DNA of 64,000 bases, from assembly GCA_001774495.1 (NCBI GenBank), contig MFAE01000006.1, forward strand, positions 69,356-133,355. Direction: 5' to 3'. This document shows, in pieces, positions 754-60,663 of the stretch. The position numbers were made by a program, and so were the translations under genes. The notes below the pieces were generated by a model. It worked only from the letters and a program-made list of their open reading frames with translations. It did not search any database and was not told where the DNA came from. Each line of letters opens with the position of its first letter. Position 1 is the first letter of the stretch. This DNA is from Candidatus Campbellbacteria bacterium RIFOXYC2_FULL_35_25. GTDB taxonomy: Bacteria; Patescibacteriota; Minisyncoccia; Phycocordibacterales; UBA12079.

Positions 754-2535
754 TTATAGTCTCTCAGGACTTTCAATTCCCAAAAGATTCAAACCATTTT
801 TAATAATTTGAGCAACTGCTTCTGTAAGAGCTACTTTGTATGGAGCATTTTTGTCTGTTTTATCGGCAATTTTGTTGTTTCCATAGAAAGAGTTGAAGGT
901 TTGAGCCAATTCAAAAAGATAAGTAGCAATATAATGAGGCTCATATTCTTCCCCTGCTCTTTCTACAATTTCTGGGAAACGATAAAGCAACTTTTCTACC
1001 TCTGTTATTTCTTCATCTAAAAGTTGGTTGTCGGACAACCAACTTTTTATATTTTCTTGGTGGGCTTTTTCAATAACAGACTTTGCTCTGGCGTATGTGT
1101 ATTGCAAGTATGGTCCAGAGTTTCCTTCAACAGAAACTGATTTATCAAAATCAAAAATAATATCTTTTCCGCTCGCTGATCTCAAAACTGAATATTTGAT
1201 TGCGGACAAAACAACCTGGTTCACAACACTAATATCTTTAGATTCTTTAAATTTCTTTTCAACAACTTTTTCAACTTCTCCCAGCAATTCAATTGCCCCT
1301 TGAACATTCCCAGTACGAGAAGACATTTTTCCTTCAGGCAACCTTAGCATACCGTGAGAAATATGCTTGGTTTTTTTAGCTAACTCAGGATAAATAAATT
1401 CCATAGCTTTCAATAAGACCTGAAAGTATCCGTCTACTTCATTACCCGTAATAACGATAGACTTGTCATATTGGTATTCTTCAAATTTTATTTGGGCTAA
1501 ACCTAATTCTTTTGCTTCATAAGTGGGCAAATCTTCTGAATTAACAAAAACCCTCGTATGCAAACTAGATTTTTCTTCAGAAAAAATAATAGCTCCTTCA
1601 CTTTTTTCAAAAACTCCTTTTTCTAGATATTCCTCTACGATTTTTTTACCTAAAACACCTGTGTTACTCTCTAAATAATAAAAATCAAAATGTTTCCTGC
1701 TATCTATATCTTTACTATCAACAATCGGTTTCATACCTAGTTTGTCATAAATAACCTCAAAAAAGTTTAGACTCCATTTTTTTCCTACTTCATAAAAACT
1801 ATTTATTTCTTCATCAGATTTATCATAAATTTTTTTGTTTATCCGGACAATCTGTTTTTTCACTTCAACATCATCGTTGTATTTTTTATCTCCCAAAGCA
1901 TAGGCTTGCCCCAATAAACCGATCCTCAACCCTAGGTCTGTAACATTTTTTACACTACTATTTCTAAACTCCTCAAATTTCTCCCGTAAGGAAACATCAT
2001 CCATTAAACTATAAATAGTTTTGGCAACATGAATTCCAACATCACCTTGGTAAATAGCTCTCTTTACCTCTGCACCACTAAAATTAATGATTCTTGCAAT
2101 TGATTCCCCGATGGTGTTACTCATAAGATGCCCAATGTGGAATTGTTTAAAAGGATTAGGGTCAGTATATTCCACCATTATTTTTTTTCCTTTCAAATTT
2201 TCGTTACTTCCATACTTGTCGCCTGCTTTTAAAACTGTGCCAAGATTTTCTTCAAAAAACTTTTTGCTTAGATAAAAATTTATAAAGCCCGCACCTGCCA
2301 CCTCAACCTTCTCCAAGGACTCAGTTCCTGTGAATTTTATTCTTTCAACGATTTTTTCGGCGAGTTCTTTTGGATTTTGCCCAAATTGTTTTGAATAGAC
2401 CATAGCAACATTGGTTGAATAATCCCCCATAGCTAAATCAACGGGGTGTTCCATGTGAACAACGTCAGTCTCAACCCCCAATTCACCGAGAGCTTCTTTT
2501 GTTAATTTTTCTAATTCTTTTTTAATAGCAATCAT
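754..2535 (-). CDS. argS: arginyl-tRNA synthetase
   Basis: 593 aa with the class I HIGH motif (FHIGHLMS) and ArgRS-like N- and C-terminal anticodon-binding regions. Confidence 0.9.
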   Translation of the reverse strand: MIAIKKELEKLTKEALGELGVETDVVHMEHPVDLAMGDYSTNVAMVYSKQFGQNPKELAEKIVERIKFTGTESLEKVEVAGAGFINFYLSKKFFEENLGTVLKAGDKYGSNENLKGKKIMVEYTDPNPFKQFHIGHLMSNTIGESIARIINFSGAEVKRAIYQGDVGIHVAKTIYSLMDDVSLREKFEEFRNSSVKNVTDLGLRIGLLGQAYALGDKKYNDDVEVKKQIVRINKKIYDKSDEEINSFYEVGKKWSLNFFEVIYDKLGMKPIVDSKDIDSRKHFDFYYLESNTGVLGKKIVEEYLEKGVFEKSEGAIIFSEEKSSLHTRVFVNSEDLPTYEAKELGLAQIKFEEYQYDKSIVITGNEVDGYFQVLLKAMEFIYPELAKKTKHISHGMLRLPEGKMSSRTGNVQGAIELLGEVEKVVEKKFKESKDISVVNQVVLSAIKYSVLRSASGKDIIFDFDKSVSVEGNSGPYLQYTYARAKSVIEKAHQENIKSWLSDNQLLDEEITEVEKLLYRFPEIVERAGEEYEPHYIATYLFELAQTFNSFYGNNKIADKTDKNAPYKVALTEAVAQIIKNGLNLLGIESPERL

Positions 2536-2550
2536 TGTTCTTCATTATTT

Positions 2551-3165
2551 TTAAATAATATTTTGTATTTCTATTATATCATCTATTAAATAGTCCGGGT
2601 TTGATTTTGAAACTACATCCTTATGTTGAATCCCCCAAGTAATTGCAACCGTTTTAACCTGTGCCATTTTCCCGAATTCTACATCCCCACAAGTATCCCC
2701 TACATAAAAAGTATTGGCTCTATCAAGCCCGTATTCCTCGACCAAAGAAGCAATTGATTCTTCTTTGAGATGATTTCCTCCTCCGATGGTCTTTGTTATA
2801 AAATGAGAAATCCCAGATCTTTCAATTTCCGGCATTAATTTTGAAATTGGATCAGAGCTAACAATAAACAATTCAAAGCCATGCATTTTTAAATACTCAA
2901 CTACTTGTTGCACATTATAGAAAATATCCGGCTCACCAACTTGATGAATAAATTTTTCGTACAACTCCTCAGCTTTTTCTTTTGTTAAGTCAGGGAAATA
3001 TTTATTCCAAAATTTCATGTAAGGCATCGTAAAATTTATTTTTATCTCTTCTTCAGAAAGTAGAGTACCACCCTGATCTTCAAAGATAAGCCCACACACT
3101 TTATAAAAACAATGGAAATTGTCACTTAGAGTTCCTGACCAATCAAAAATGAAAGCTTTTTTCAT
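2551..3165 (-). CDS. HAD-superfamily hydrolase (phosphatase)
   Basis: N-terminal FDWSGTL (DxDGT-like motif I) and a C-terminal GDTxxD motif; 204 aa. Confidence 0.7.
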   Translation of the reverse strand: MKKAFIFDWSGTLSDNFHCFYKVCGLIFEDQGGTLLSEEEIKINFTMPYMKFWNKYFPDLTKEKAEELYEKFIHQVGEPDIFYNVQQVVEYLKMHGFELFIVSSDPISKLMPEIERSGISHFITKTIGGGNHLKEESIASLVEEYGLDRANTFYVGDTCGDVEFGKMAQVKTVAITWGIQHKDVVSKSNPDYLIDDIIEIQNII

Positions 3166-3210
3166 AATAAATTAAATACTACCACAGCAGGTAGTTTTTA
3201 TAAATATAAA

Positions 3211-3238
3211 AGCCCCGCATCGCAACGGGGCTTTCGGA
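3211..3238 (-). terminator. rho-independent-like hairpin
   Basis: aaagccccgcatcgcaacggggcttt stem-loop between the Nudix stop and the HAD start. Confidence 0.45.
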
Positions 3239-3250
3239 CGAGCAAAAAGC

Positions 3251-3649
3251 TCAATTTTGGGGAAGATGCCCTTGTTGTTGGAGAGCACTCACCACCTGCC
3301 TTGTGGCGCTACACAGAGGGAGACTCAGTGGGTCTTCGGCCAACATAGTACCTTTGGCGGAGTCGTCGGGACAAAAACCTTCCCCCTCGACCAGATAGAC
3401 GATGTCGCATACCTCTTGTGAAGAAAGAAGACTAGTCCCCCTTCGGAAACATTTGAAATACTCGAGACATGCAATATGCGAAGTTGGGCTACAAAACTTT
3501 CGGATAAGACATTGGATGTCAGTAGAATCACTTGCCTGTGGCATCCCGCTAGGCAATGTCCAAATCTTTCCTTCGCGGACCAACAGAAGCCGTCCACCCT
3601 GAATCACCGCTGCCTTGATAACCTCTTTTACTTCATTAATCTGCATCAA
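3251..3649 (-). CDS. Nudix-fold protein with degenerate Nudix box, lying in a GC-rich islet
   Basis: N-terminus AAVIQGGRLLLVREGKIWTLPSG is typical of the Nudix fold, but the REx2EE glutamates are missing. Local GC is visibly higher than the flanks. Confidence 0.4.
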   Translation of the reverse strand: MMQINEVKEVIKAAVIQGGRLLLVREGKIWTLPSGMPQASDSTDIQCLIRKFCSPTSHIACLEYFKCFRRGTSLLSSQEVCDIVYLVEGEGFCPDDSAKGTMLAEDPLSLPLCSATRQVVSALQQQGHLPQN

Positions 3650-3774
3650 AAGCCCCCCTCATTAAATTTTTTACCACTTTGATTAAGAACGCCAGAGGTA
3701 TTTTTAACACAAAAAAGTAAAAAAGAAAAGCTTTTATAAAAACAAAAATCGCCTGAGGCGATTTTTGTTTTAGA

Positions 3775-3905
3775 GTTCTTTTGTTTCTCTGTTCTTCTGT
3801 TTCTTTGTTCTTTGTTTCTTTGTTTCTTTGTTTCTTTGTTCTTTTGTTTCTCTGTTCTTCTGTTCTTCTGTTCTTTAGTTTCTATGTTCCTTCGTTTCTC
3901 TGTCT
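3775..3905. repeat. tandem 8-mer array (GTTTCTTT/GTTCTTCT, about 16 units)
   Basis: Direct reading of the sequence. The array lies between the dut stop (3909) and its terminator hairpin at 3741-3765. Confidence 0.85.
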
Positions 3906-3908
3906 TTA

Positions 3909-4331
3909 TTAAACCCCAGTACTTCCAAAACCACCATCGCCTCTTTCTGTCTCACCCAAAGAATCAGCAACTTCAATTTCTGGACTCTCAATTTTTTGAA
4001 TTAACATTTGAGCAATTTTTTGACCCTTTTTAATTTCAAAAGTTTTTTCACTAAGATTTTTTAAAACAATCAATATTTCTCCTCGGTAACCAGAATCAAT
4101 AACTCCCGCCATCGTCTTAACCCCATTATTAAAAGCCACTCCACTTTTATCCCAAACTAAACCAACATAACCATCTGGGATTTCCATTTTAATTCCAGCC
4201 GAAATTCTTTTCATTTCTCCTGGTGTAATTGCTTCATCAACCGAAGAATATATATCAAAACCAGCATCGCCCGCTTTTGCATAATTAGGAACAACCGCGT
4301 CCTCTGATATTTTTTGTATTTTTATTTTCAT
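3909..4331 (-). CDS. dut: dUTP diphosphatase
   Basis: 140 aa with conserved dUTPase motifs (AGFDI, GVIDSGYRGE). Confidence 0.9.
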   Translation of the reverse strand: MKIKIQKISEDAVVPNYAKAGDAGFDIYSSVDEAITPGEMKRISAGIKMEIPDGYVGLVWDKSGVAFNNGVKTMAGVIDSGYRGEILIVLKNLSEKTFEIKKGQKIAQMLIQKIESPEIEVADSLGETERGDGGFGSTGV

Positions 4332-4470
4332 ATTAGTAAATATGATAACAATAAAATAGTAAATTAAAAAGGATTTGATTGACTTTGGGTGCCTGTTTGT
4401 GTATAAATTCCATAGGAAGTAGGTTCATTGAAAGTAACCAAGATCAACATATACAAGAGGAGAAGAAACA

Positions 4471-5373
4471 ATGGAGAACGTCGCTTACAAACCTTACGAA
4501 GGAAGGACACCTGATTATCAATACCAAAACACGATCAAGCTCATACTTGAACAAGGGGTGAGATCCAAGAGTCAACCTGGTACAGATACCTTAACGGTTC
4601 TGTGTCCGCCAGCAAGCCACTACCGTCTTGATAATGGCTTCCCAATGATTACAGAAAGGAGTGTAAAATCATTTTGGGGACAACCCATCGGAGAAATCTG
4701 TGCATTTGTAAATGGAGTGAGAACACTCAAGGGACTGGAAGAATTTGGCTGTAAGTTTTGGTCACTTTGGGGTACACCTGAAAAATGTGCGAAACGAGGA
4801 TTGGAAGCTGGTGACCTAGGTCCCGGCTCTTATGGAGCAGGATTCCATGATTTTCCTACTGCTGATGGAGGAACTTTTAATCAGTTCCAACATATCATTG
4901 AGCAAATCAAGGAGATTCCTCATTTGAAAACCCATTTCGTCAGCCCTTGGATACCTCAGTTCATCGGCCGAGGCAAAGGAAAACAACAAAAGGTTGTTGT
5001 TGCCCCGTGTCATGGCTGGCTTTATTTCAAGGTGTATGGTGACGAACTCACTACAGTAATGGTTCAGCGTTCGGCTGATTTTCCTGTCGGAGTTCCATCC
5101 AATATGATTCAATATGCTGCTTTAACAATGATGATGGCCCATGCCACCGGGTTAAAGCCTGTTGAATTTATTCACCAACCAATAGATGCTCACGTCTATG
5201 TGGATCAAATTCCGAGAATGAAGGAACTCATCAAGCGAGAACCAAGACCCTTTCCAACAGTAACCATGAATACCGATGTTGATGACTTTTTTGGTTTCAG
5301 GAAAAAACACTTTACACTGGGCGACGATTACAATCCTCACCCAGCAATGAAAGATATTCCAGTAGCAATTTGA
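4471..5373 (+). CDS. thyA: thymidylate synthase (ThyA type)
   Basis: Catalytic PCH (VAPCHGW), REPRP and a C-terminal DYNPHPAMKDIPVAI that aligns with the E. coli ThyA terminus. Asn is present in the FNIASY-equivalent region, indicating dUMP specificity. GC-rich relative to the flanks. Confidence 0.9.
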   Translation: MENVAYKPYEGRTPDYQYQNTIKLILEQGVRSKSQPGTDTLTVLCPPASHYRLDNGFPMITERSVKSFWGQPIGEICAFVNGVRTLKGLEEFGCKFWSLWGTPEKCAKRGLEAGDLGPGSYGAGFHDFPTADGGTFNQFQHIIEQIKEIPHLKTHFVSPWIPQFIGRGKGKQQKVVVAPCHGWLYFKVYGDELTTVMVQRSADFPVGVPSNMIQYAALTMMMAHATGLKPVEFIHQPIDAHVYVDQIPRMKELIKREPRPFPTVTMNTDVDDFFGFRKKHFTLGDDYNPHPAMKDIPVAI

Positions 5374-28740: not shown

Positions 28741-28979
28741 ATAGAATCGTCCCACGATTACTAAGTAAATTTTTTCGTGCCTCAAAATTTACAAAGTATC
28801 GCTGGACATATTTCTTTCGTTTCAGCTTTTTTTATTAAGGTTGAAATCAAAAGCCCGCTGTCTCGCTTCGCTCGACATGCCCCGTCTTTCGATTCCTGAC
28901 GAAAAGTGCGCAGGCACTTTTCTCCGAGAGGACAAAATTAAAAGAACAGATTGAAAACCAATCTGTTCTTTTAATTTTG
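28741..28979 (-). repeat. tRNA 3'-flank module copy b, downstream of tRNA-Arg(GCG)
   Basis: 28-bp palindrome including the tRNA acceptor 3' strand, the hairpin GAAAAGTGC-CTGC-GCACTTTTC, and the conserved core ...GTCCAGCGATACTTTGTAAATTTTGAGGCACGAAAAAATTTACTTAGTAATCGTGGGACGATTC. Confidence 0.7.
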
Positions 28980-57904: not shown

Positions 57905-58115
57905 ACACACTATAAACCCCCACACCTTTTATTACTTTATTATCCACAAAATCATCTTCATAAAAATAATTAGCAAGATTATCTCATAAAGGACAACAAA
58001 AGGTGTGGGGGTAAAGGACATTTCTATAAACCCCCACACCTTTCATTTTACTGTCCTTTAAACTCTCCTACTCTAAAATAAAAAGTGGGGGGTTAAAGAC
58101 ACCTTTTATTATAAA
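57905..58115. repeat. G-rich iteron cluster (ACCCCCACACCTTT in direct and inverted copies)
   Basis: ctataaacccccacacctttt at 57910-57932 and 58024-58046. Inverted aaaaggtgtgggggtaaagg at 57989-58008 and gtggggggtt at 58085-58094. Confidence 0.75.
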
Positions 58116-58663
58116 ACAACATCTTCTATATATTTCACTCTGGCTAACTTATTTTTTGTATCTAAATAAACAATTGCAACATCAAACTGCCATTCTTTTT
58201 CTTCATTGGTGTTATTCTCCATCAAATAAGTCTGGATTACCTTTGATAATCTCTTTAATTTCCACGGGTGTAGATTATCTTCGGCCTGGTATTGATCATT
58301 TTCTTCATTATTATTACTATTTCCATCAGTTATTGTTTCACGAATAACACTATTTTCACCCTTTTTTGTTTCACGAATAACATCTTTTTTACCATTCTTA
58401 GCCATATTTTGTGTTTCACGAATAACATCCTGCTGTTTACCCAACTCAAAATCAAACAAATCCCGAGAAACAGTCTTAACTTCTATGAAATGAATTATTT
58501 CTTTTCCTCGCCCGAACAGAGGTTTTGGGTTCTCAGCAATAATATCTATCTCCCCCCAAGGTTTCAAATAATTTATACCTATTATTTTAAATCCCTTATC
58601 TTGTAGATAGTTACACGTGACACCTTCTCCAAGATCACCTATTATTTGCTTCTGAGTTTTCAT
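58109..58663 (-). CDS. yraN: YraN/UPF0102-family endonuclease-like protein with internal (D)VIRET x3 repeat insertion
   Basis: GEIDIIA...EVK core; about 60 aa of inserted repeats (DVIRETQN / DVIRETKK / VIRETITD). Confidence 0.6.
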   Translation of the reverse strand: MKTQKQIIGDLGEGVTCNYLQDKGFKIIGINYLKPWGEIDIIAENPKPLFGRGKEIIHFIEVKTVSRDLFDFELGKQQDVIRETQNMAKNGKKDVIRETKKGENSVIRETITDGNSNNNEENDQYQAEDNLHPWKLKRLSKVIQTYLMENNTNEEKEWQFDVAIVYLDTKNKLARVKYIEDVVL

Positions 58664-59268
58664 TTTTTACTTTAGTGATTTTACAATTTAAAAAATAAAT
58701 AATATTAAATATAATAACATACCAAAAAATGTTTTAAACAACCACAAGTTAACTTAGTACAAAATTTTCTAATAAAAAGTGTCACGTGTAACTTAACCAA
58801 ACTCAACGAGAAATACAAAATTTTTAATAATTTTTAATCAAAAATTAAAGAAAAAATACCAAAAACATTTCACGTGAAACACCAAAAAGGTTTCTACGAA
58901 ACCTTTTTGGTGTTTTTATAAACTTTTTTCACGGAAAATACTGTCTTTAACTGTGTCTTTTTCCTAAATAAGCTTATTTTAAGCCCTATTTACAAGAAAA
59001 AAACTAATTCTAAAAGACAGAAATAGTCTGTTTTAATGGACAAGTTATCCTTTCTATACACAGAGTTATCCACAGTTTTGCACAAAATTAGCTATATTTT
59101 GGGTAAAAATATCTAAAATAATAGGGTGAATATCTATAAATAAGGGTTATTTAGGGTGGGGATAATCGATTGCAAGCCATTAATCACTTAGGCAGAGAAT
59201 CGGCCACAAATCGCCAAGTCTTTTGTTTACAAGAGAAAAGAATCAACCCCAGTTCTAAATTCAGATGT

Positions 59269-59517
59269 GCGGGTGGGGAGAATCGTCCCGCGATTACTAA
59301 GTAAATTTTTTCGTACCTCAAAATTTACAAAGTATCGCTGGACATATTTCTTTCGTTTCAGCTTTTTTTATTAAGGTTGAAATCGAAAGCTCGCTGTCTC
59401 GCTTCGCTCGGCATGCTCCGCTGTTCGATTCTCCACGAAAAGTACGCAGGTACTTTTCTCCACCTCGCACTAAAAACCAAAAAAGAACCTTGAAGAAAAG
59501 GTTCTTTTTTGGTTTTG
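59269..59517 (-). repeat. tRNA 3'-flank module copy c, downstream of tRNA-Gly(TCC)
   Basis: Palindrome including the tRNA 3' end, the hairpin GAAAAGTAC-CTGC-GTACTTTTC, and the conserved core. Ends in GGGACGATTCTCCCCACCCGCAC, a direct duplicate of the tRNA 3' 17 nt with one mismatch. Confidence 0.7.
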
Positions 59518-59588
59518 TGCGGGTGGAGAGAATCGAACTCTCGCCCCAACCTTGGAAGGGTCGTATTCTACCACTAAACCACACCCGC
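59518..59588 (-). tRNA. tRNA-Gly (TCC)
   Basis: Manual fold: acceptor GCGGGTG/CACCCGC, anticodon stem CGACC/GGTTG with loop CTTCCAA, T-arm GAGAG-TTCGATT-CTCTC. Confidence 0.8.
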
Positions 59589-59590
59589 AT

Positions 59591-60256
59591 TTATTTTTCA
59601 CCTAAGACAATTTTCATCCAATAGTTTATTCTACGGAACAAAAAAACACCTAACTCTTTCCTCCCATTACTCTTTACTGTTAAGTGTATGGTTCCATGAG
59701 GTAATTTGCCTCTTTTGGATTCTTTTTTCTTTCTTTTATCAACCTGAACTTTCCCAAACTGACTTATAGGTATTTTAGTGTATTTTGACCAAAAACTCAA
59801 GCATTCTTTCTTATTATTATCTGGATAAATATGCAACCCCACAGAAAAATTTTCTTTTTTTAGGCCACAAATAACTTCAAACCATTTAATTGACAAATTT
59901 ATTACTGCCGGATTTGCATTTATTACCCTTATAATATCATGACTTTTAGAACCTTCTCCTATATATAACCCTAATCCTAACATAAATAAATCCCTTTCAT
60001 TTATTTCCCCAATATCATCAATCGCGATTTCTTTTGCTTTCAAAAAAGTTTTCTTCTTTTCTTCTTTTTTGTACTCAATCATTTTTAGGCGAGATTCTTT
60101 TATTCTTATTTCTGTTTCTTGATTAGGGGTATAAGGAATATCAGACAACCAATAACTCAATGTTCCTTTTGCAATATTAAGTTGCTCTGAAATATAGCTA
60201 TATGAATAACCTTTTTTTCTTAGTTTTATAGACTCTTCTTTTTCTTCTTTTCTCAT
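59591..60256 (-). CDS. free-standing LAGLIDADG-family homing endonuclease-like protein with N-terminal HTH
   Basis: Single LGLGLYIGEGS motif and an N-terminal HTH-like GYSYSYISEQLNIAKGTLSYWL. The stop lies 2 nt from the tRNA-Gly 5' end. Confidence 0.55.
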   Translation of the reverse strand: MRKEEKEESIKLRKKGYSYSYISEQLNIAKGTLSYWLSDIPYTPNQETEIRIKESRLKMIEYKKEEKKKTFLKAKEIAIDDIGEINERDLFMLGLGLYIGEGSKSHDIIRVINANPAVINLSIKWFEVICGLKKENFSVGLHIYPDNNKKECLSFWSKYTKIPISQFGKVQVDKRKKKESKRGKLPHGTIHLTVKSNGRKELGVFLFRRINYWMKIVLGEK

Positions 60257-60384
60257 ATCATTTATATGATAACATACGATTATATAAAGTGCGAATATAA
60301 TTTATAGTTTAATAATTTAATATTAACACCAAATTTTAAAAATATTATGATACAATTTAAAAATTAAAAGTAATTTATATTAAC

Positions 60385-60663
60385 ATGGAAAATAAGCAAA
60401 TGTTCAAAGGGGACTGGAAGTGTAGTGGCTGTGGTAAATCTATAACAGAACTACCTTTTGAGCCTAAAAATACAAGCAATTTAACCTGTAGAGACTGTTA
60501 TTCTTCGGGCAAGGTTGTAAAAAAGCCCCTAGGAGAAAAGAAAATATTCCAAGGGAATTGGAAGTGCAATACCTGTGGAGGAGAGATAAACCAACTTCCT
60601 TTTGAACCAAAGAGTACGAACAATCTTACTTGCCGAGAATGTTATATGAAGACTAGGGGGTAG
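60385..60663 (+). CDS. double zinc-ribbon small protein
   Basis: Two repeats of WKCxxCG..I..LPFEPK.T.NLTCR(D/E)CY. Confidence 0.4.
   Translation: MENKQMFKGDWKCSGCGKSITELPFEPKNTSNLTCRDCYSSGKVVKKPLGEKKIFQGNWKCNTCGGEINQLPFEPKSTNNLTCRECYMKTRG

Follow-up and report, generated by a model that had tools for sequence, protein, structure and literature searches.

The window analysed here is a 64,000-nucleotide (nt) stretch of contig MFAE01000006.1 from Candidatus Campbellbacteria bacterium RIFOXYC2_FULL_35_25; positions below are counted from its first letter. It has a G+C content of 35% and carries ten tRNA genes. One of these, tRNA-Gly(UCC), is preceded on the same strand by an intact open reading frame (ORF) of 221 codons. 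An earlier note on this DNA had placed the end of the ORF 2 nt before the tRNA, and the coordinates bear this out exactly (only 59589-59590 lie between the stop codon and tRNA position 1; Table 1). The encoded protein belongs to an unannotated family that combines a helix-turn-helix (HTH) with a LAGLIDADG-like domain and whose members bear only the public names "hypothetical" or "HTH domain-containing". All close homologues reside in assemblies of Patescibacteria (the Candidate Phyla Radiation, CPR), mainly Paceibacteria/Parcubacteria. The 64-kb window holds no second copy of the ORF, and an Rfam scan of it returned tRNAs only. Taken together, the comparisons described below make it probable, if by no great measure, that the ORF is a selfish gene of a free-standing, homing-endonuclease-like kind, with the 5′ flank of tRNA-Gly(UCC) as its site.

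The earlier note had also described a free-standing gene with an N-terminal HTH and a LAGLIDADG-type motif. Both traits hold, the HTH at the level of the family and the motif through its conservation. In the window sequence alone the HTH is a sub-threshold Pfam match (HTH_28, E = 0.0044). HTH_23 matches 77 of 84 diverse family members (best E = 8e-11), and the further HTH families that these members match occur in transposases, resolvases and terminase small subunits; matches to PHROGs are likewise confined to the HTH. A full-length AlphaFold2 model with 30 homologues as input reaches a predicted local distance difference test (pLDDT) score of 88. It begins with three short N-terminal helices, followed by a single long helix that may act as a linker or dimerisation element and by a C-terminal domain, which gives a poorer model by itself (pLDDT 74). 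The alignment of the 30 homologues, at about 50% pairwise identity, contains 37 invariant positions. The C-terminal domain contains the sequence LGLGLYIGEGS (residues 93-103, nt 59948-59980), within and beside which G94, G100, E101, G102 and K104 are invariant and L95 and G96 are at least 90% conserved. G100, E101 and G102 are still at least 90% conserved over the 84 diverse members. Invariant residues of the domain as a whole are R88, D89, E101, K104, N113, Y144-P145-D146, D173, R175, K177 and H191, and the domain carries a basic insertion at residues ~147-188. The predicted order of structural elements can be read as compatible with a LAGLIDADG core bearing this basic insertion of about 40 residues in its second hairpin.

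Similarity of the C-terminal domain to homing endonucleases comes from three weak profile matches, each on the second motif of I-DmoI and mutually consistent. A family profile run against all PDB sequences matched the HTH protein Cgl2762 best (E = 0.0013) and the SinR HTH weakly. In the same search it matched I-DmoI at E = 0.014-0.03, over the second LAGLIDADG motif and the next ~35 residues. In hhalign, a broad family profile of 93 sequences aligned with I-DmoI at 91% probability over 46 columns, and a narrower one at 63%; residues 96-145 of the I-DmoI sequence used agree with the PDB-search alignment. This alignment pairs E101 and K104 of the ORF with E117 and K120 of I-DmoI, both of which are catalytic. 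The PADLOC homing-endonuclease model ("HEase") matches the same stretch at E = 0.004. RecA matches in the first PDB search were an artefact of concatenated RecA chains aligning with the HTH region.

Homologous loci (labelled L and a number) were fetched via the protein alone from species-representative genomes, and ARAGORN was run on all of them. In 63 of the 68 loci at 36% identity or more, a co-oriented tRNA-Gly(UCC) starts between -23 and +69 nt from the ORF stop, and in about a third of the loci the reading frame ends within the first 1-23 nt of the tRNA. Of the non-conforming loci, two lie at contig ends, one (L054) has a local inversion and the others have ORFs broken by a stop or an assembly gap. 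Genes flanking the ORF are otherwise variable, so that the tRNA is its constant partner. Such recurrence in loci found via the protein places the adjacency far beyond chance. Whether homologues elsewhere also adjoin tRNAs had been posed as a check in the earlier note, and they do, both in these loci and across the family.

For the family-wide scan, a profile built from diverse members was run against the six-frame ORFs of every fetched locus and recovered 106 family ORFs. Most abut tRNA-Gly(UCC) (80), followed by tRNA-Gly(GCC) (12), tRNA-Arg(UCG) (4) and tRNA-Met(CAU) (1); two lie at contig ends and seven, mostly interrupted copies, have no abutting tRNA. Every abutting ORF is on the strand of its tRNA, with gaps of -21 to +38 nt. 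Some genomes possess two or three paralogues, each before its own tRNA (e.g. L019). Subfamilies sort by tRNA partner, with identities of 43-49% within groups and 23-27% between them, and in 89 of 92 cases a member and its nearest neighbour share their tRNA partner. Five very distant representatives, looked up individually, all lie at or beside tRNA genes: one, just 29% identical to the window protein, abuts Gly(UCC); a second abuts Lys(CUU) and a third Glu(CUC); the fourth is a member of a tandem pair in a tRNA-Pro to tRNA-Gly(UCC) interval; and the fifth lies 125 nt downstream of tRNA-Met. In L201, two ORFs of different subfamilies (1681-2376 and 2366-3097) stand in tandem between tRNA-Pro and tRNA-Gly(UCC), which suggests successive insertions into one spacer. 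A whole-library search returned 1,081 clusters (50% identity) at E<1e-10, and the family is therefore large.

An IMG/VR contig of 252 kb (L199, ~2990-3650) encodes a homologue of 28% identity between tRNA-Gln and tRNA-Glu, within the six-tRNA array of a putative large phage and on the strand opposite to the tRNAs. In L073 a canonical two-motif LAGLIDADG_3 protein (3814-4485) ends inside the 5′ end of tRNA-Asp, so that a nuclease gene unrelated to the family is found in an equivalent place. A small subfamily (L069, L072, L073) is arranged head-to-head with a tRNA(CAU) gene that is interrupted in its anticodon loop by a group I intron; ARAGORN missed this intron-bearing gene, and the family ORF starts 40-320 nt away on the other strand.

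One alternative is an RNA-level factor, namely a LAGLIDADG-maturase-like chaperone or a processing or stability factor that serves the downstream pre-tRNA on the same transcript. The shared strand agrees with it, as does the reading frame that ends inside the tRNA in about a third of loci and thereby implies a shared transcript; so does the group I intron in the tRNA(CAU) that neighbours one subfamily. However, no introns occur in the partner tRNAs of the main subfamilies, very similar tRNAs exist in relatives that lack the ORF, neither the viral homologue nor the intron-linked subfamily is co-oriented with its tRNAs, and the HTH is of a DNA-binding type. An RNA-level role is thus highly improbable.

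The ORF and its own promoter-like site together form a cassette of ~750-880 bp. Sequences like the window promoter-like site also precede the ORF in L016 and L058. No terminal inverted repeats or target duplication were found around the window cassette (59480-60480), only low-complexity repeats; in none of 72 loci does the sequence upstream of the ORF repeat the tRNA 5′ end; and no genome had multiple near-identical insertions. These results bear on the idea of a site-specific transposase or recombinase, in which a transposase-type HTH joined to a novel catalytic domain would make up a one-gene element inserting at tRNA 5′ ends. The N-terminus does match the HTH types of IS630/Tc1, resolvase/invertase and Sleeping Beauty transposases, the C-terminal domain is without a significant structural neighbour, and presence at the fixed site is patchy. 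Nevertheless, the cassette ends lack the marks of transposition just listed, Pfam finds no recombinase domain in the ORF, and the sole sequence similarity of the C-terminal domain is to a homing endonuclease. This alternative is accordingly judged improbable.

How often the site is occupied was gauged with 120 metagenomic loci collected through a degenerate tRNA-Gly(UCC) pattern, of which 92 have at least 700 nt upstream. The ORF is present at about 10 of these 92; the ORF-less sample carries no taxonomy, so part of the 90% absence reflects other lineages. Many ORF-less loci share an Arg(UCG)-Gly(GCC)-Pro(UGG)-Gly(UCC) cluster. The spacer between Pro and Gly(UCC) measures 3-53 nt in the ORF-less loci examined, versus 752-884 nt in occupied ones (e.g. 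L016, L058). A CCA-adding-enzyme gene recurrently adjoins this cluster (L018 268-1827, L075 2284-3750, L076 3336-4802, L198 1-1442) and, being syntenic with it, served as a marker of host relatedness. Twelve genomes whose CCA-adding enzymes are 78-87% identical have the ORF at both Gly tRNAs, at either one or at neither. L048, with both ORFs, and L109, with neither, have CCA-adding enzymes 87% identical and are colinear except for two insertions. There is, then, presence/absence polymorphism at one fixed site among related genomes. The earlier note had offered an independently mobile locus as its fallback reading, which fits both the spacer lengths and the range of combinations among close relatives. 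When occupied and empty loci were paired on tRNA identity only, nothing could be learned, as identical tRNAs lay in unalignable flanks; the CCA-adding-enzyme gene was the better marker.

Intact copies of the ORF are under strong purifying selection, with ratios of nonsynonymous to synonymous substitution (dN/dS) of 0.04-0.19. Decayed copies occur as well: L023 and L051 have single in-frame stops, and L064 and L071 have lost the N-terminal part. In L051 the stop (~3451-3453) interrupts an otherwise intact copy exactly at the codon of the invariant Trp156. Recoding of TGA was considered there, and a simple nonsense mutation (TGG to stop) was judged more likely because of the other in-frame stops and truncations in L023, L064 and L071.

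Within the close group, ORF-preceded tRNAs are more divergent (0.79 identity) than ORF-less ones (0.87), with a tRNA-Pro control at 0.92, and ORF-linked tRNA-Gly(UCC) genes favour other anticodon-stem variants than ORF-less ones do. Such differences would fit tRNA alleles hitch-hiking with the ORF or, equally, immunity of the site, but are no more than suggestive, since the pairs lack independence. ORF identity correlates weakly with tRNA identity (Spearman 0.33).

Several observations weigh against a homing endonuclease, beginning with the fold. No Pfam LAGLIDADG model (LAGLIDADG_1/2/3/WhiA) matches the ORF up to E = 10, and none appears among the 25 most-matched of 135 families for the 84 members; the same approach scores the canonical LAGLIDADG_3 neighbour in L073 at 9.8e-14. 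In hhalign the family is similar neither to I-CreI nor to that canonical protein. Foldseek searches of the full and C-domain models against PDB, and of the full model against BFVD, returned no LAGLIDADG structure and nothing significant; the best matches, OmpA-like and IspF folds at template-modelling (TM) scores of 0.3-0.4, were treated as noise. The claim of a LAGLIDADG fold in the earlier note therefore stands only in part: the weak I-DmoI and PADLOC matches support it, no Pfam model or Foldseek structure does, and the C-terminal domain is here called LAGLIDADG-like, the fold and membership of the family proper being unconfirmed. As to mobility, the ORF is about as diverged as neighbouring genes in three syntenic pairs, and descent within lineages therefore looks largely vertical. 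Near-identical ORFs in unrelated contexts were not seen, so that no recent horizontal transfer was caught, and repeated loss of an old gene would also yield patchiness. That the protein is a nuclease, where it would cut and that it homes are inferences, and purifying selection, constant co-orientation and abutment are equally expected of a host gene co-transcribed with the tRNA.

The last point is the core of the main rival, which purifying selection, strict orientation and the lack of demonstrated transfer keep alive. Here the protein would be a domesticated, DNA-binding one with a WhiA-like, LAGLIDADG-derived domain and an HTH, co-transcribed with the downstream tRNA gene and regulating or insulating it. 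The HTH, the low dN/dS, a divergence comparable to that of syntenic housekeeping neighbours and the near-zero spacing on one strand all suit such a role, as does the promoter-like site of the ORF in a window where no clear separate promoter for the tRNA was found. On the other hand, a strong TGTATAAT-type -10 element lies between ORF stop and tRNA at some loci, so the two need not be co-transcribed. The ORF is dispensed with, in all combinations, by close relatives that have the same tRNA cluster, some copies are pseudogenised, and the viral homologue lies opposite to its tRNAs. Domesticated LAGLIDADG proteins typically lose their catalytic residues, whereas catalytic-type Glu and Lys are retained here. 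Domestication is for these reasons considered unlikely, if the most serious of the competing accounts.

On its other side, tRNA-Gly(UCC) is followed by a palindromic terminator-like hairpin and a flank module with a shared core of ~190 nt. The earlier note had described such a module, and it is real: an inverted copy of the tRNA 3′ end (~59457-59470) follows the terminator, and a direct copy (59267-59280) matches in 13 of 14 bases. An exact 27-mer of the core recurs at 28780, 59316 and 60844 (three copies in the window versus 0 expected). Folded as RNA, the module is predicted to reach -77 kcal/mol (z = -7.8), and it has no Rfam match; microRNA-family matches over 59439-59550 merely reflect the long hairpin of tRNA 3′ end, terminator and inverted copy. 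Modules stand 3′ of nine of the ten window tRNAs (11711, 15309, 15818, 27071, 28979, 56091, 57708, 59517, 61001). They share a layout of terminator palindrome, inverted copy and then mostly, ~180-240 nt on, a direct copy of the 3′ end of their own tRNA, with a core between the copies that is only partly shared among modules. That the arms match each host tRNA would be odd for an ordinary miniature inverted-repeat transposable element.

A functional link between ORF and module, with the nuclease nicking tRNA genes to seed module insertion, had been suggested in the earlier note. It drew on the two features flanking the same tRNA, where the module is well preserved. The distribution largely refutes it, and the proposal retains next to no probability. 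Although nine window tRNAs have modules, only one is preceded by the ORF, which has no paralogue there. Elsewhere just ~8 of ~65 ORF-linked tRNA-Gly(UCC) genes show a 3′-end duplication, and such duplications occur at Pro, Gly(GCC) and Gly(UCC) tRNAs, ORF-less Pro and Gly(GCC) included. Because modules are so general in the window and absent from most ORF-linked tRNAs elsewhere, the module is regarded as an unrelated passenger of the same tRNA, separate from the ORF.

Where the 3′ flank holds a protein gene, it is a small GIY-YIG gene of 75-90 amino acids (aa) directly 3′ of the tRNA (L075 6768-7040, L073 4637-4864, L060 ~4156-4377). In L075 the 90-aa gene lies between tRNA-Gly(UCC) and a copy of the tRNA's 3′ end: the original 3′ end borders the gene on one side and a GTGCGGGT-CC-ACCCGCAC hairpin repeating that end borders it on the other; in L073 the gene follows tRNA-Asp. 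These proteins are distinct from the studied family, the ORF has no GIY-YIG Pfam match, and the window has no GIY-YIG gene. The GIY-YIG genes may be the autonomous counterpart of the ORF-less 3′-flank modules. If a nuclease seeds 3′-flank insertions, a GIY-YIG gene is a better candidate than the ORF.

Overall, the combined features resemble a free-standing homing-endonuclease gene and not a transposon, an integrase island or a housekeeping factor. A homodimeric, HTH-assisted nuclease is proposed because the site is fixed and free of duplication, the gene has its own promoter-like sequence, is dispensable and decays sporadically, catalytic-type residues are retained, paralogues are retargeted to other tRNAs, a homologue lies in a phage tRNA array, and group I introns, canonical LAGLIDADG genes and GIY-YIG genes occur at neighbouring tRNAs. 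In the proposed mechanism, the cassette occupies the otherwise 3-53 nt spacer before tRNA-Gly(UCC) in the conserved Arg(UCG)-Gly(GCC)-Pro(UGG)-Gly(UCC) cluster. The protein would dimerise through its single LAGLIDADG-like domain, as single-motif enzymes do, and the HTH and basic loops would recognise tRNA-Gly(UCC) by the 5′ part of its gene. ORF-less alleles would then be cut at or just upstream of the tRNA 5′ end by a site comprising Glu101 and Lys104. Recombinational repair could subsequently copy the ORF in, sometimes together with the adjacent tRNA allele.

Extended to the whole superfamily, the proposal becomes more tentative and falls somewhat short of probable. These proteins may constitute an unrecognised class of HTH-tethered, single-motif LAGLIDADG-like homing endonucleases at chromosomal tRNA genes (Gly-UCC, Gly-GCC, Arg-UCG, Lys-CUU, Glu-CUC, Met-CAU), each subfamily having co-evolved with one tRNA, and homing might drive tRNA conversion and divergence in Patescibacteria and phages. 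If so, a large "hypothetical" family of Patescibacteria would acquire a function, and its members could be recognised simply by their abutting the 5′ end of a particular tRNA. The tRNA clusters of these tiny genomes would be colonised at both ends by different selfish elements, the studied family at the 5′ end and GIY-YIG genes with repeat modules at the 3′ end. The subfamilies would also provide a natural series of small (~220 aa) nucleases retargeted to known, highly conserved sequences, useful for studies of specificity evolution and possibly for engineering. For annotation, the same reading counsels caution, as ORF-tRNA overlaps and unusually divergent tRNA alleles may be by-products of the elements.

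Some features of the surroundings are recorded for completeness. U73 is the usual discriminator of bacterial tRNA-Gly. A73 takes its place both in the window tRNA and in most tRNA-Gly(UCC) genes of the fetched loci, where CCA is mostly not encoded; U73 with an encoded CCA occurs in a minority that is Saccharimonadia-like. The zinc-ribbon gene divergently upstream of the ORF is retained in the closest relatives L075, L076 and L077 (Pfam zf_Tbcl_2 in L076 and L077). A spot similar to that of the 184-aa ORF between tRNA-Pro and tRNA-Gly(UCC) holds UPF0102 genes (Pfam PF02021) in L198 and L201.

Table 1. Features of the tRNA-Gly(UCC) locus in the window, with the group I introns found at related loci
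Feature	Position	Strand	Basis or remarks
ORF of 221 aa, tRNA-Gly(UCC)-linked subfamily of the unannotated HTH + LAGLIDADG-like family	59591..60256	minus	intact; ATG start, TAA stop
tRNA-Gly(UCC), A73 discriminator, CCA not encoded	59517..59588	minus	tRNA scan and Rfam (68 bits); conserved partner of the subfamily
N-terminal HTH, residues ~5-38, homeodomain-like/transposase type	60143..60244	minus	Pfam HTH_28/HTH_23; AlphaFold2 helices 2-14, 19-26, 30-36
Single long helix, residues 46-82 (37 residues), between HTH and C-terminal domain	60011..60121	minus	AlphaFold2, pLDDT 89-95
C-terminal alpha/beta domain, residues 87-218	59603..59998	minus	AlphaFold2 and alignment; no Pfam match
LAGLIDADG-type motif LGLGLYIGEGSK, residues 93-104	59945..59980	minus	alignment and I-DmoI matches
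Promoter-like site TTCGCA-18-TATCAT with upstream TG, ending 9 nt before ATG	60266..60295	minus	consensus match alone
Palindromic terminator-like hairpin directly 3′ of tRNA-Gly(UCC), 12-nt perfect arms	59472..59516	minus	
3′-flank module: inverted tRNA 3′-end copy, shared repeat core, direct copy	59262..59471	minus	
Zinc-ribbon neighbour, 92 aa, two CxxC...CxxC units, divergently upstream of the ORF	60385-60663	plus	
ORF of 184 aa between tRNA-Pro and tRNA-Gly(UCC)	58109-58663	minus	short internal repeat, three "...VIRET..." units
Group I intron in anticodon loop of tRNA(CAU)	L072 2636-2899	minus	Rfam, 60-73 bits over the three loci
Group I intron in anticodon loop of tRNA(CAU)	L073 2659-2871	minus	as above
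Group I intron in anticodon loop of tRNA(CAU)	L069 2158-2422	minus	as above

Literature searches returned no description of the family, of the rule that its members abut tRNA 5′ ends or of tRNA-specific subfamilies, and the system is best placed by comparison with known ones. Unlike tRNA-targeting integrative elements, the ORF encodes no recombinase domain, and the insert lies at the tRNA 5′ end with no duplicated segment. A point shared with classical LAGLIDADG enzymes is the motif helix, which ends in G-E-G-x-K with Glu and Lys aligned to E117 and K120 of I-DmoI. With one motif in each chain, the protein would be expected to form a homodimer like I-CreI. Unlike I-DmoI and I-CreI, the family has no Pfam or Foldseek LAGLIDADG match and no hhalign match to I-CreI, possesses an N-terminal HTH and a 37-residue helix, and is encoded outside any intron or intein. 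If the fold is LAGLIDADG, the ~40-residue insertion sits where the β3-β4 hairpin would be. WhiA offers a parallel of another kind, as it also combines a LAGLIDADG-derived domain with an HTH, is chromosomal and, under purifying selection, descends vertically. Its two LAGLIDADG domains are degenerate and lack the catalytic acids, its HTH is C-terminal, and it is near-universal in its clades; the present family, in contrast, has one domain with an invariant acidic residue, an N-terminal HTH and a patchy presence.

Within CPR genomes, earlier work has noted homing endonuclease genes in rRNA spacers as well as tRNAs with group I introns (PMC8172020). The rRNA-spacer genes resemble the studied family in being lodged between structural RNA genes and differ in residing in rRNA spacers or introns and in encoding canonical LAGLIDADG enzymes. 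The closest functional analogue is SegB of phage T4, a free-standing GIY-YIG homing endonuclease encoded in a tRNA cluster, which brings about preferred inheritance of the adjacent tRNA region (PMC2330249). Like SegB, the family is found in a tRNA cluster; it is dispensable, the tRNA alleles beside it are unusually divergent, and one member occurs in a viral array. Whereas SegB is a phage GIY-YIG enzyme, the family pairs an HTH with a LAGLIDADG-like domain and is chromosomal in Patescibacteria, where it keeps to the tRNA 5′ end and to a single orientation, its subfamilies tied to different tRNAs.

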